19,946 nucleotides of DNA from a virus (lineage: Duplodnaviria > Heunggongvirae > Uroviricota > Caudoviricetes). Shown in pieces: positions 1 to 19,944 of the stretch (position 1 is its first letter; each line of letters begins with the position of its first letter). The position numbers were made by a program, and so were the translations under genes. Under the pieces are notes generated by a model, which had not been told where the DNA came from, made no database searches, and saw nothing but the letters and a program-made list of their open reading frames with translations. Location of the stretch: IMG/VR virus record IMGVR_UViG_2734482599_000001; one strand, 5' to 3'.

Positions 1-3000
1 TTTCCGCTCCCCGGATCGTCATACGCTATACCGTTAAAAATAATGGGCGGAATAATAATCTGGCGGTCAAAGTTATGATCATCGCTTATGGTGACTGTAA
101 CCGTCCCGTTTGGTGTTTCCGTGTTACCCCACGTACCAGCCTGTTTCGGAAATGATTTGGATACAGCTTTAACGAAGTCACCTCTGACCTGAGTCGCCTC
201 CAGCATGCCCTTAATCGTACAGTTTTCATTTACCGTGACATTGTTGAGCGTCCCGGCGTTCGCATTCACACTGCCACTGATATCCGCATTTTTAGCGGTC
301 AGCTTTCCGTCCGGAGTCAGGGAAAATGCCGATGGATTTCCACCGCTGGTAATGGTGGGGGCCGTCAGGCGTTTCAGGAACACGTCGTTCATGAATATCT
401 GATCGCCCTGACCAACAAACATCGGTTTTGTGTTGCCATTCGCAGGATTAACCATCGCAATCCTGTCCGCCGCCAGCAGCACCTGACTCTGCATGCCGTC
501 AGGGGTGTTCTCAATACCGGCACCAATACCCGCGATATAAAGGCGTCCGTCCTGCATCTGCTGCAGCTTCACAGCCCACATGCTGTTCAGGTTATTATTT
601 GTATCAACCTGAACCTTCTGTATCTGCTGAATTGCCGCACTCTGGTCTTCCAGTTTCTTATTGACGGTCTGCGTGATTTCATTGCTGACATCCGTAATGG
701 ACGTCCTGATTTCAGCCAGGTCAGGCGCAAGCTGACCGTTATCAATCTGCGTCCACAGCTCCTGAGCCAGATGGGTTTTCCCTATCTCGCCTTTGAAAAA
801 ATCCAGATAACCGGATGCATCATCACTCGGCTGACCAACAGCCTCCACGAATGCCGATTTGCCAACGGTGTTCACACTGCGGATATAAAAGTAATAATCA
901 TGGCCCGGTTTGATATTGATACTGGCGGCTATCCAGTACAGCGCCGTGCCAAGATAGCGTGCTGTGGTTTCAACCTGCCTGATATCCGCAATCCGCTTTT
1001 CCGAGAACCAGAACTCAAACTGTACCGTCGGATCATAAACCGCAAGATGCGGCGTGGCGGTTATCTGAAAATAGCCCGGCGTCAGCTCAATCCGCGACAG
1101 CGCTGCCGGTGCGGCAATCCGGAACGATACCGACGCCGGATCGCCCTGCTGCCCCCACGCATTTACTGCCCGGACTGTCAGCCTGTAGTTCCCCAGCGCC
1201 AGTTGTGTGAAGCGGTAAGTGGTTTCCGTCGTCCGGGCCGTGCTGACCAGCCGCTCACTGCCGTCATCCGCTGTTACGGTCAGACGGAGCAGGAAGCTCA
1301 CGCCCTTCACCACCTTCGGCGTGTCCCAGCGCGCCAGCACCTGATATTCCCCGCTGTCTGCGGTGACTTCGGCAGTCAGGTGCTGCACCGCTGGCGGCGT
1401 GACACCATTCACCGTGCCGCTCTGGTCGCCGTCAAAGTGCGCCCCGTTATCCACGATGGCTTCTTTTTCCGGCACATGCTGCACGGCGGTGATGGCATAC
1501 GTGCCGTCGTCGTTCTCACGGATACTCACGCAGCGGAACAATCGCTGGTGCAGCGTCGGCAGCTTCAGCCCCCACACGCTGTATTCAGCAACACCGTCAG
1601 GAACACGGCTCACTTTTACCTTCACGCCGTCGGTGACGGACTGGACCTCCACGCTGACCGGATTCCCCTGCCCGTCAACCAGGCTTATCAGCGTGGTGCC
1701 GGAGGATGGCAGCGTGATTTCACGGTCGAGCGTCAGCGTCCGGGTCTGGCTGTTCACCGCCAGCACGCGCCCGCCGGTGCGGATACCGGCATAGTCATCA
1801 TCGCAGATTTCAATGACATCGCCCGGTACATGACGAAGCCCTTCAGCACCCACGCTGAAATCCACGGTCTGCGTCTCCAGCAGTTCCGTTTTAATCAGCC
1901 ACAGCCCGGCGCGGTGTGCCTGCCCCCGGCTGGTACAGCCAAAGGCATCCATCTTCGTGACGTTACGACCGTAACGGACAATGGCCTGCGTATCCTCCAC
2001 AAGCTCTGTCGCCGTCTCCCAGCCGTTATCCGGGTCAATCCAGTTCACCTCAACGGCATTATGGCGGTCTTTCAGGGCGCTGAAACTGTAGCGGAACGGC
2101 GCGCNNNNNNNNNNNNNNNNNNNNNNNNNNNNNNNNNNNNNNNNNNNNNNNNNNNNNNNNNNNNNNNNNNNNNNNNNNNNNNNNNNNNNNNNNNNNNNNN
2201 NNNNNNNNNNNNNNNNNNNNNNNNNNNNNNNNNNNNNNNNNNNNNNNNNNNNNNNNNNNNNNNNNNNNNNNNNNNNNNNNNNNNNNNNNNNNNNNNNNNN
2301 NNNNNNNNNNNNNNNNNNNNNNNNNNNNNNNNNNNNNNNNNNNNNNNNNNNNNNCCCCATGCCATAGCGCGGATGGGTCAGCATATCCCACAGACACCAG
2401 GCCATGTTGTTGCTGTATGCCGGTTTTAACGTTCCGTCCCAGATACCGCTGTATTGCCGCGTCTGCGGATTATAGTTCGACGGCACCTGCAGAATGCGCC
2501 CGCGAAGATGATAATTACGGCTCACCTGCTGGCTGCCGAACTGCTCCGAATCCACCTGTACGCCGACCAGTGCCGTGTTCGGGTAGCACTGTTTCACATC
2601 GATGATTTCGGTGTATGACGACCAGAGCGTTTTGTTCTGCAGCTGGTCTGTGGTGCTGTCCGGCGTCATTCTGCGCATCCGGATATTAAACGGGCGCGGC
2701 GGCAGGTTATCCACCACCACCGAGGCCAGATACTGCGAGGTGGTTTTGCCCTTAATGGTGATGTCTTTTTCCGTCACCCAGCCACCGTTACGCTGTATCT
2801 GAACCAGCAGGCGAACTTCAGACGGATTCCTGTCTCCCTTTGAGGTGGTTTCCACCAGTGCCTGTACACCGAAGGTAAAACGCAGTCGGTCAATGTTTGC
2901 CGACGTGATGGTCCGGGTGATCGGCGTGTCATATTTCACTTCCGTACCCAGCACCGTCTCGGAGCCGGAGGATTCAAATCCCTCCGGCGGTGACTGCTCC

Positions 3001-3218
3001 TGCTCACCTGCCCGGAACACCACCGTGACGCCGGAGATGTTGGTATTCCCCTCACTGTCCAGCACCGGCGTACTGTTCAGCAGCACGCTTTTTAATCCAT
3101 CCACCGGACCTTCAACCGGCCCTTCGCTGATGGCATCGATCACACTCAGCAGCTGCGTGGACTTCAGGTTGTCCTTCGCTTCGCGCGGGGTATGCCCCTT
3201 ACTGCTGCCTTTACCCAT
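1..3218 (-). CDS. J: Central tail fiber / host-specificity protein gpJ, partial (C-terminal ~60 aa lie beyond window start; interrupted by N run 2105-2354)
   Basis: Reverse-strand ATG at 3216-3218 gives [14 protein letters not shown], the lambda gpJ N-terminus, 60 nt after the I stop as in lambda. Hand translation of rc 1-420 gives [54 protein letters not shown]..., matching the lambda J C-terminal region before diverging. Not in the ORF track because it has no in-window stop. Confidence 0.93.
2105..2354. other. Run of 250 N (assembly gap or masked sequence) inside J
   Basis: Literal n characters in the sequence. Confidence 1.
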
Positions 3219-3278
3219 TCGTCATGCTCCATAAACGATAAAACCGCCCGGAGGCGATTTCACATAAAACATTTTGCA

Positions 3279-3950
3279 TCAGCGACCAATCACCACAACC
3301 TGACCACCGTCCCCTTCGTCTGCCGTGCTGATCTCCTGAGATACCACACGTGACCCCACGCGCATTTCACCATACAGAACAGGCATAACATTGCCCTGGG
3401 CAACCATGTTATCCAGTGAGGAGAAATAGGTGTTCTGCTTACCGTTATCCGTTGTCTGTGTGCGGGGAGTTCTGGCTTTCGGTGCCAGCATCTGAGCCAC
3501 ACCGCCGAGCACCATACTGGCACCGAGAGAAAACAGAATGCCGGTCATACCACCGGCACCAATGGCAGCCCCCCATGCTGCAAGGGTGGCTCCGGCGGTA
3601 AAGAATGATCCGGCAATGGCGGCTGCTCCCAGGACAATCTGGAATACACCACCTGACTTGGCCCCGGCGACTCTGGGAACAATATGAATCACAGCGCCGT
3701 CAGGCAGAGCCTCATGTAACTGTGCCGTTAATCCGGACGTGCTAACATCCTGCCCGGCAATACGCACCTGATACCAGCCGTCGCTCAGCTTCTGACGAAA
3801 CGCAGGGAGCTGTGTGGCCATCGCCCGGATGGCTTCGGCACCCGTTTTCACACGAAGGTCGATGCGGCGGCCAAATCGTTGCAAATCCCCGTAAAGGCAG
3901 ATGCGTGCCATGCCCGGTGACGCCAGAGGGAGTGTGTGCGTCGCTGCCAT
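3279..3950 (-). CDS. I: Tail tip assembly protein gpI
   Basis: 223-aa ORF starting MAATHTLPLASPGMARICLYGDLQRFGRR, same length and sequence as lambda gpI; overlaps K as in lambda. Confidence 0.95.
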   Translation of the reverse strand: MAATHTLPLASPGMARICLYGDLQRFGRRIDLRVKTGAEAIRAMATQLPAFRQKLSDGWYQVRIAGQDVSTSGLTAQLHEALPDGAVIHIVPRVAGAKSGGVFQIVLGAAAIAGSFFTAGATLAAWGAAIGAGGMTGILFSLGASMVLGGVAQMLAPKARTPRTQTTDNGKQNTYFSSLDNMVAQGNVMPVLYGEMRVGSRVVSQEISTADEGDGGQVVVIGR

Positions 3951-4447
3951 TTGTCGGTATACCTCTCTCGTTTGCTCAGTTGTTCAGGAATATGGTGCAG
4001 CAGCTCGCCGTCACCACAGTAAATGGCGGCATGATTCGGCACCGATGAACCAAAACAGCACAGCAGCACATCGCCCGGCTGCGCCGCTGACAACGGCACC
4101 TGATACAGCCCTGTGGCCTCCAGATTATCCAGATAGAGATTCTGACCGTGACGCCACCAGTCATCCTCACGATGAAAATCCGGCATCTCAATCCCCGCCA
4201 GATGGTAAGCATCCCGGAACAGCGTGTAACAGTCCGTCACCCCGTGCTCAAAGCGCCGCCCGGTAAGATGTGGCACACAGCGGAACTTGTGAATCGCCCC
4301 CCGGCAGACCAGCCACCACGGCAAATCACTCTGCACCTGCAGCCGCCGGTCGGCCTCACTCAGCCAGGGCAGACCACCGGGGTGGCTGTGGACCAGTGCC
4401 ACAATCTCACCCTGCATCTCTGCCTGCAGCCAGTCTTCCGGCGACAT
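3848..4447 (-). CDS. K: Tail tip assembly protein gpK (NlpC/P60 plus JAB/MPN-type domains)
   Basis: Within ORF 3848-4945 the in-frame ATG at 4445-4447 gives a 199-aa protein MSPEDWLQAEMQGEIVALVHSHPGG...AASTFV, matching lambda gpK length and sequence. The upstream extension in the ORF track reads through N. Confidence 0.9.
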   Translation of the reverse strand: MSPEDWLQAEMQGEIVALVHSHPGGLPWLSEADRRLQVQSDLPWWLVCRGAIHKFRCVPHLTGRRFEHGVTDCYTLFRDAYHLAGIEMPDFHREDDWWRHGQNLYLDNLEATGLYQVPLSAAQPGDVLLCCFGSSVPNHAAIYCGDGELLHHIPEQLSKRERYTDKWQRRTHSLWRHRAWHASAFTGICNDLAAASTFV

Positions 4448-4534
4448 ACGGAAATACGCCTCCGGCTCACCGGAGATATTCACGCAGGGGAAATATCTTT
4501 CCCCCTCCGGCGTTCTTACCACGAAGCCGCACGA

Positions 4535-4839
4535 NNNNNNNNNNNNNNNNNNNNNNNNNNNNNNNNNNNNNNNNNNNNNNNNNNNNNNNNNNNNNNNNNN
4601 NNNNNNNNNNNNNNNNNNNNNNNNNNNNNNNNNNNNNNNNNNNNNNNNNNNNNNNNNNNNNNNNNNNNNNNNNNNNNNNNNNNNNNNNNNNNNNNNNNNN
4701 NNNNNNNNNNNNNNNNNNNNNNNNNNNNNNNNNNNNNNNNNNNNNNNNNNNNNNNNNNNNNNNNNNNNNNNNNNNNNNNNNNNNNNNNNNNNNNNNNNNN
4801 NNNNNNNNNNNNNNNNNNNNNNNNNNNNNNNNNNNNNNN
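4535..4839. other. Run of 305 N (assembly gap or masked sequence) covering the 3' end of L and part of the L-K intergenic region
   Basis: Literal n characters in the sequence. Confidence 1.
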
Positions 4840-18053: not shown

Positions 18054-18079
<26 letters not shown>

Positions 18080-18599
18080 TCAGCAACCCCGGTATCAGTT
18101 CATCCAGCGCGGCTGCTTTGTTCATGGCTTTGATGATATCCCGTTTCAGGAAATCAACATGTCGGTTTTCCAGTTCCGGAAAACGCCGCTGCACCGACAG
18201 GGGGATCCCGTCGAGAATACTGGCAATTTCACCTGCGATCCGCGACAGCACGAAAGTACAGAATGCGGTTTCCACCACTTCAGCGGAGTCTCTGGCATTT
18301 TTCAGCTCCTGTGCGTCGGCCTGCGCACGCGTAAGTCGATGGCGTTCGTACTCAATAGTCCCTGGCTGGAGATCTGTCTCGCTGGCCTGCCGCAGTTCTT
18401 CAACTTCCCGGCGCAGCTTTTCGTTCTCAATTTCAGCATCCCTTTCGGCATACCATCTTATAACGGCGGCAGAGTCATAAAGCACCTCATTACCCTTGCC
18501 ACCGCCTCGCAGAACGGGCATTCCCTGTTCCTGCCAGTTCTGAATGGTACGGATACTCGCACCGAAAATGTCAGCCAGCTGCTTTTTGTTGACTTCCAT
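18054..18599 (-). CDS. Nu1: Terminase small subunit gpNu1 (winged-HTH cosB-binding)
   Basis: 181-aa ORF MEVNKKQLADIFGASIRTIQNWQEQGMPVLRGGGKGNEVLYDSAAV..., lambda gpNu1 length and sequence; 26-nt overlap with A as in lambda; RBS GGAATGAACA upstream on the coding strand. Confidence 0.97.
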
Positions 18600-18987: not shown

Positions 18988-19221
18988 ATGTCAACGAAGA
19001 ACAGAACCCGCAGAACAACAACCCGCAACATCCGCTTTCCTAACCAAATGATTGAACAAATTAACATCGCTCTTGTTCAAAAAGGGTCCGGGAATTTCTC
19101 AGCCTGGGTCATTGAAGCCTGCCGCCGGAGACTGTGCTCAGAAAAAAGAGTTTCGCCTGAAGCAAACAAAGAAAAGAGTGACATTACTGAATTGCTCAGA
19201 AAACAGGTTAGACCAGATTGA
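18988..19221 (+). CDS. Small ribbon-helix-helix-like DNA-binding protein, YlcI/DUF3950-like prophage right-end protein (77 aa)
   Basis: ATG at 18988 preceded by AGGG about 7 nt upstream. The product MSTKNRTRRTTTRNIRFPNQMIEQINIALVQKGSGNFSAWVIEACRRRL has a basic N-terminus, a beta-strand (NIRFP), helix A, and a G-x-S/N-x-S-x-W-hI-helix B pattern typical of RHH (Arc/CopG/MetJ) folds. The first ~50 codons correspond to the unannotated small ORF at the lambda right end and to E. coli prophage ylcI-type genes, from memory; the C-terminal 25 aa differ. Confidence 0.6.
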   Translation: MSTKNRTRRTTTRNIRFPNQMIEQINIALVQKGSGNFSAWVIEACRRRLCSEKRVSPEANKEKSDITELLRKQVRPD

Positions 19222-19278
19222 AGCAATTTAGATAATCGTGCAGACTACGCCCCCTCATATCACATGGAAGGTACTACA

Positions 19279-19689
19279 ATGGCTCAGGTTGCCATTTTTA
19301 AACAAATATTCGATAAAGTGCGAAATAATTTAAACTATCACTGGTTTTATTCTGAACTAAAACGTCACAATGTCTCACATTACATTTACTATTTAGCCAC
19401 AGAGAATATTCATCTTGTTCTTGAAAACGATAATACGGTTTTAATAAAAGGACAGGGTAAGGTTGTAAATGTAAGATTTTCAAAAAATAAATGCCTTATA
19501 GAAGCCACCTTAAAAGGATTCAAATCAGGAGAGTTATCATTTTACGAATACAGGAAAAATCTTGCTACAGCAGGGGTTTTCAGATGGATTACAAATATCC
19601 ACGAAAACAAAAGGTATTACTATACCTTTGATAATTCATTACTCTTTACTGAGAACATACAGAACACTACACAAATATTTCCGCACTAA
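19279..19689 (+). CDS. DUF1398 (YbcV/YdfO-like) prophage accessory protein, 136 aa
   Basis: ATG at 19279 with RBS GGAAGG 7 nt upstream; the ORF-track start at 19264 is an in-frame extension. Markedly AT-rich compared with the structural genes. The product [58 protein letters not shown]... resembles what I recall of the YbcV/YdfO DUF1398 family of E. coli cryptic prophages (DLP12, Qin); the family assignment is from memory. Confidence 0.6.
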
Positions 19690-19734: not shown

Positions 19735-19944
19735 ATGATGAAATATGTGTACCCGGTAACCCCGGTGTGCATCGTTTTTGATTATTCCCGCACACTCGCG
19801 CAGAAGGAGTTCCCCGTCGGGCTACGGTCTCTGTTAATACGGGAATACGGCGACGATTGGATTTGCCCCTATATTTCCAGACATCTGTTATCACTTAACC
19901 CATTACAAGCCCGCTGCCGCAGATATTCCCGTGGCGAGCGATAA
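19735..19944 (+). CDS. Hypothetical small protein (69 aa), unknown function; possible prophage moron ORF
   Basis: ORF with in-window stop (taa at 19942-19944); product MMKYVYPVTPVCIVFDYSRTLAQKEFPVGLRSLLIREYGDDWICPYISRHLL has protein-like mixed composition; no clear SD. Not recognised by me as a known family. Confidence 0.25.
   Translation: MMKYVYPVTPVCIVFDYSRTLAQKEFPVGLRSLLIREYGDDWICPYISRHLLSLNPLQARCRRYSRGER

Follow-up and report, generated by a model that had tools for sequence, protein, structure and literature searches.

At the left end of the 19,946-nucleotide stretch of DNA analysed here (the window), a lambda-like prophage encodes a central tail fibre, J, put together by recombination from modules that are already known. 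Its common body is followed by a shaft of the phage 21 type and a tip of the phage 434 type. Sequence comparison places the tip in the allele class of phage 434 ("h434"), and the porin that it recognises is probably OmpC rather than LamB. The original prediction, that a mosaic fibre tip diverged from that of lambda points to a different receptor, for example OmpC, is supported by this assignment, which reaches the receptor by homology with 434.

The window comprises the late (head and tail) operon of the prophage on the minus strand and aligns with the Nu1-to-J interval of lambda at 96.3% nucleotide identity across 94% of its length, the coverage of the lambda alignment ending at about positions 19750-19860. 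The tail outside the fibre tip had been described as lambda-identical, which overstates a nucleotide identity of about 96%. Beyond Nu1 and cos, two ORFs on the opposite strand occupy what would be the prophage map's right end. The genes concerned are the following.

Positions 3-3218, minus strand: gene J (tip attachment protein, central tail fibre), identified by translation, with an ATG at 3218.
Positions 3279-3950: gene I (Lambda_tail_I), directly upstream of J.
Positions 18054-18599: Nu1, of the late operon.
Positions 18988-19221, plus strand: DUF3950 protein of 77 amino acids.
Positions 19264-19689, plus strand: DUF1398 protein of 141 amino acids.

Gene J is cut by the left edge of the window at base 3, leaving a fragment of 1072 codons that includes a run of 250 Ns. 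The J peptide quoted in the original prediction agrees exactly with the minus-strand translation of positions 3-3299, which leaves the window at its left end, and the lambda J sequence given there for comparison was correct. It had been proposed to complete J from sequence beyond the window, and this was achieved from IMG/VR, where an 80-mer from the window end had more than 120 exact matches. Two contigs, L028 (overlapping nt 1-2104 and 2355-4456) and L027 (nt 1-2104 and 2355-3998), match all of the overlapped unmasked window sequence at 100%, and each contains an intact J ORF of 1165 amino acids. The final 83 residues of J lie outside the window and were taken from these 100%-matching contigs, and the full tip so obtained is still of the 434 type. 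Among complete Escherichia coli genomes, none was more than 98% identical over window nt 1-2100, and a 120-mer of the window had no exact match in a collection of genome contigs.

The N runs at positions 2105-2354 and 4535-4839 are masks whose lengths are not those of the sequence they hide: the first has 250 Ns where the otherwise 100%-identical contigs have 280 nt, and the second has 305 Ns in place of 239 nt. Because 250 Ns replace 280 nt, residue numbers of J read from the window beyond the first mask are 10 below the true ones.

Positions 3-3218 are gene J of a Lambdavirus-like prophage. The L028 J ORF gave Pfam matches, all above the cut-offs, to FNIII-A_GpJ, Phage-tail_3, Ig_J, Ig_J_second, Phage_Tail_Tip, and Ig_GpJ_C, and this full-length ORF has the complete domain series of a lambda-type J, namely the hub, two FNIII/Ig domains, a helical shaft, a beta-prism, and an Ig-like receptor-binding domain (RBD). 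The gene closes the late operon, directly after the tail genes M-L-K-I. On L027, which covers about 1.7 kb downstream, a lom/Ail-like ORF begins 70 nt after J, and a lom-like gene is also next after J in lambda, 434, and phi458. Matches of J in the PDB were 8iyk, 8xcj, and 9wca. Gene position, domain order, and a body 95-98% identical are shared with lambda gpJ (P03749; 8XCJ, 8XCK, and 8IYK), as is a homologous Ig-like RBD. Along its length, J divides into the following segments.

Positions 821-3218, minus strand: common J body (hub and FNIII/Ig domains), with 95-99% amino acid identity to lambda, 434, and 21.
Positions 430-820, minus strand: phage 21-type module, comprising the alpha-helical shaft (AHS) and the upper beta-prism, with a 28-amino-acid (84-nt) insertion relative to lambda and 434.
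Positions 213-429, minus strand: conserved junction, including the motif NVT.NENCTI, common to all J alleles.
Positions 1-212, minus strand: phage 434-type tip, comprising the last strands of the fibre prism and the first 54 or so residues of the RBD.

Divergence from lambda at the C terminus, which was the core of the original prediction, is borne out: over nt 1-212, identity to lambda is 53% at the nucleotide level and 45% at the amino acid level, compared with about 90% in the junction and 95-98% in the body. Such a difference is far above chance or ordinary polymorphism. The same segment has 93.4% nucleotide identity to 434 and 56% to phage 21, and in the encoded peptide 66 of 70 residues (94%) agree with 434, compared with 48% identity to phage 21. 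The in-window tip aligns with residues 985-1054 of 434 J (E = 5e-45). The segment had been taken as the C-terminal RBD; it does hold the tip and its divergence, but only part of the RBD proper is inside the window, since Ig_GpJ_C matches amino acids 1029-1164 of J (89 bits, against a cut-off of 26) and its in-window portion, nt 3-164, supplies about 54 of 137 residues.

Upstream of the junction, J had been read as lambda-like as far as the motif FMNDVF, but nt 430-820 form a second divergent module, of the phage 21 type. This exchange of the shaft was overlooked in the first reading and falls partly outside the region with which that reading was concerned. Over nt 430-761, phage 21 matches at 97.0%, whereas lambda and 434 reach 59% and require an 84-nt gap; at the amino acid level the shaft module is 96% identical to phage 21, compared with 56% for lambda, whose shaft is 28 amino acids shorter. 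The J protein of phage 21 (OL657228, UMO75436.1) thus shares its shaft with that of the window at 97% nucleotide and 96% amino acid identity, the 28-residue insertion included. In contrast, 434 J has the short lambda type of shaft, 99% identical to that of lambda over amino acids 821-937.

The conserved junction between the two exchanged modules is 88-91% identical at the nucleotide level to lambda and 434 and 78-91% identical to phage 21, and it is likely the crossover region at which modules are joined. Engineered gpJ chimeras have been fused at lambda amino acid 964, within the same conserved stretch (Brödel et al., PMC11338833), and a study that included the cdtI and Ayreon genomes has already described how the J "specificity region" (residues 960-1132) varies by modules in nature (PMC6646904).

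In lambda, the AHS comprises residues 809-861 (PMC11101478). A single-sequence AF2 model of window positions 354-800 placed helices at residues 5-20 and 24-83 (central pLDDT, 83-92), forming a near-unbroken helix of about 80 residues with the 28-residue insertion inside the shaft. The model is informative for the helical shaft only: in its prism part pLDDT was below 50, as is to be expected of an obligate trimer. If the insertion is alpha-helical, as modelled, the shaft would be about 4 nm longer than that of lambda.

When the tip is completed from L028, 159 of its 169 residues are identical to those of 434 with no indels, whereas identity to lambda over the same length is 38-40% with 10-13 gapped positions, so that the tip does not have the features of a LamB-type allele. 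In the C-terminal comparison with lambdoid J proteins of known receptor, which the original prediction had proposed as its check, 434 (OmpC) was the best match, and lambda (LamB) reached 38-45%. Among phage records, identity to the window tip was either at least 90% or below 60%, with none between, and the divergence therefore does not fall within normal polymorphism of LamB-binding J proteins.

The 434 protein itself (OL657226, UMO75286.1) has the same tip length as the window J and a body 96-99% identical to it, with a lom-like gene downstream; the two tips differ by ten substitutions, several of them beside putative specificity loops. Both 434B and lambda h434 imm21 (OM418627) have the h434 allele as well. 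The latter hybrid is the carrier of the classical h434 host-range allele (PMC9119081), and its sequenced tip is of the same 434 type as that of the window. The closest counterpart of the whole protein is the J of phi458 (OP434518, UYE91775.1), which has the three-module architecture, a length of 1165 amino acids, and 98-100% amino acid identity per segment, differing from the window J by scattered substitutions only. The same architecture was found in cdtI, Ayreon, ev099, mEp332, Kati, and PhiR34_1.

Other OmpC-binding proteins belong to the same domain family as the window tip but carry different alleles. These include A8 (phi330 type; PDB 9WCA and 9WCB), which gave the best PDB match over the C-terminal 320 or so amino acids of J (9wca, E = 7e-98, compared with E = 2e-89 for lambda gpJ, 8xcj), and 1A2, whose gpJ tip is a third type distinct from that of the window (PMC11338833, supplement). 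Phi330 (PV189401), an OmpC-using Stx phage, was suspected of carrying the same allele since its own nearest genome, WGPS6, has the tip of the window; the phi330/A8 tip proved to be only about 52% identical, and phi330 was set aside. Likewise, neither gpJ sequence of the engineered OmpC-binding chimeras A8 and 1A2 matches the window tip. The entries 9wca and 9wcb, titled "A8 gpJ 713," represent an engineered OmpC-binding gpJ tip and are the best structural template for that of the window; a literature search found no paper accompanying them. The fold of the tip is settled by its sequence match to the solved gpJ tips, and a model of the monomer could not tell receptors apart.

The tip of phage 21 is another allele, 48% identical to that of the window and 81% identical to the phi330/A8 type, the comparison being between phage 21 J (OL657228, 1694-5176) and phi330 J (PV189401, 17482-20610). 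OmpC use by phi330 and A8 has been demonstrated experimentally. Because of this 81% identity, phage 21 may also be an OmpC-type phage; the literature search found no statement of its receptor.

The receptor prediction depends on the comparison of lambda with 434. The J proteins of these two phages are 98-99% identical over amino acids 1-937 and 38% identical over amino acids 985-1132. Since they are nearly identical except in this last segment, the difference between LamB and OmpC use maps to it, and since the window J shares the segment with 434, OmpC is the receptor predicted for it. The primary sources for OmpC use by 434 and by lambda with its J are Hantke (1978) and Fuerst and Bingham (1978). 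Later work has phage 434 using OmpC and lambda with the 434 J binding OmpC (PMC11101478, PMC3509688, PMC12502783). All of the characterised relatives of the C-terminal domain bind trimeric porins, LamB in the case of lambda and OmpC in the cases of 434, phi330/A8, and 1A2 (PMC12502783, PMC11338833).

Close relatives that carry the window tip plate on K-12: phi458 (on MC1061), Ayreon, mEp332, and PhiR34_1. Refardt in 2011 reportedly used receptor-based differential plating of mEp332. The literature search found no receptor for mEp332, mEp460, Ayreon, phi458, the PhiR phages, Kati, or Chlobot, and the papers describing phi458 and Ayreon make no mention of one. The gpJ of 1A2 is active on the OmpC of EDL933 and inactive on that of K-12 (PMC11338833); since gpJ chimeras can tell OmpC alleles apart in this way, the exact range of OmpC variants used by the window phage is not predictable.

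If the tip were no more than a polymorphism of lambda's LamB-binding J, the phage would still adsorb to LamB. The Ig_GpJ_C family is indeed shared with the lambda RBD at about 40% identity, within the fold family of 8xcj, and some J-like proteins other than that of lambda also use LamB (PMC11893012). We nevertheless consider this explanation very improbable. Compared with that of lambda, the tip has several indels and an identity of only 45% within the window and 38-40% when complete, while identity to the tip of the OmpC-using phage 434 is 94%; the allele classes are discrete, with a gap between 60% and 90%; and lambda and 434, which differ essentially in the tip segment alone, have different receptors. 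Another conceivable receptor is FhuA or a different TonB-dependent protein, as in most lambdoid mEp phages. FhuA is the dominant receptor in the mEp collection, as far as Hernandez-Sanchez (2008) is represented by its citation in PMC11893012, and both mEp332 and mEp460 have the tip type of the window. OmpC, on the other hand, is reported to be the second most used receptor of that collection, and Ig_GpJ_C, the domain of the tip, is a porin-binding one. Moreover, in Drexlerviridae and related siphophages the use of FhuA, BtuB, or LptD goes with a separate RBP locus directly downstream of gpJ (bioRxiv 10.64898/2026.04.02.716166), whereas in L027 (about 1.7 kb downstream covered), phi458, and 434 a lom-like gene occupies that place. 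Because of this locus architecture and the domain family, we reject the FhuA reading as extremely improbable. Neither LamB nor FhuA is a likely receptor.

A subtler alternative keeps the 434-type scaffold but supposes that substitutions adjacent to the loops have retargeted it to OmpF, PhoE, an NmpC/OmpN-like porin, or a restricted set of OmpC alleles. Among the 169 residues of the tip, ten are not those of 434, and six of these (434/window: K/Q1036, V/A1037, D/N1047, V/I1136, H/Q1138, and R/G1143) adjoin the stretches aligned to lambda residues 1012 and 1107, positions that control receptor choice in lambda (PMC6646904). Relative to laboratory 434, the residues defining the sub-allele are S1032, Q1036, A1037, N1047, I1136, Q1138, and G1143. 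Specificity at the level of OmpC alleles is known in the gpJ of 1A2, four substitutions are sufficient for lambda J to gain the use of OmpF (PMC6646904), and even laboratory stocks of 434 are not uniform at position 1143. Against retargeting, the changes are few, mostly conservative, and free of indels; phi458 has the same minority residues and plates on K-12 MC1061; and the whole tip class is at least 93% identical over 111 loci. On balance we regard retargeting as unlikely, and OmpC as such remains the preferred reading.

Residue 1143 (true numbering) is R in wild-type 434, W in 434B and lambda h434 imm21, and G in the lineage of the window. Its counterpart in lambda is the loop around residue 1107, and it is the sole three-state site among the 111 IMG/VR loci. 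We are doubtful that the substitutions adaptively retune the 434-type tip, whether to certain OmpC alleles found in nature or to another porin. If they did, a common prophage family would be a natural counterpart of the laboratory experiments in which lambda shifted its host range from LamB to OmpF.

With OmpC as the receptor, a trigger mechanism like that of lambda is expected by analogy. Four loops of the trimeric Ig-like RBD of lambda enter the LamB trimer, and upon binding the RBDs spread, the beta-prism twists, the AHS (residues 809-861) flips, and the tip opens (PMC11101478). The porin docking and the trigger are presumably shared by the window J, which, given its homology with the solved lambda gpJ structures, would form a trimer. 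Its C-terminal Ig-like domains would push loops into a trimeric porin, most likely OmpC, at its extracellular mouth; binding would cause the three Ig-like domains to spread, the beta-prism to twist, and the helical shaft to flip, and this rearrangement of J would open the tail tip and lead to ejection of the DNA.

Few J tips are commoner in E. coli than the 434-type one. Matches to the last 260 nt of J inside the window at 90% identity or more were found in 2107 of 5426 complete E. coli genomes (about 39%), and 74 phage records have a tip at least 90% identical, among them 434, mEp460, cdtI, 2851, and many Stx1a and Stx2c phages. In at least 111 loci fetched from IMG/VR, the 214-amino-acid C terminus aligned without gaps at 93% identity or more; these 111 loci comprise 27 distinct C-terminal sequences with about eight variable sites in the RBD.

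The tip allele is well known, and the exact three-module architecture is already in GenBank. Though correct, the finding is an ordinary one, since the 434 tip has long been known and about 39% of complete E. coli genomes have it. Module exchange at the conserved junction (lambda amino acid 964 or thereabouts) is likewise already documented and already used in engineering. The relevance of the finding lies in host range prediction, superinfection, and the selection of gpJ modules when lambda particles are engineered, and beyond annotation it is small. For the biology of these phages, it means that the prophages with this tip in about 39% of complete E. coli genomes, together with the prophage described here, can be predicted to adsorb to OmpC rather than to LamB.
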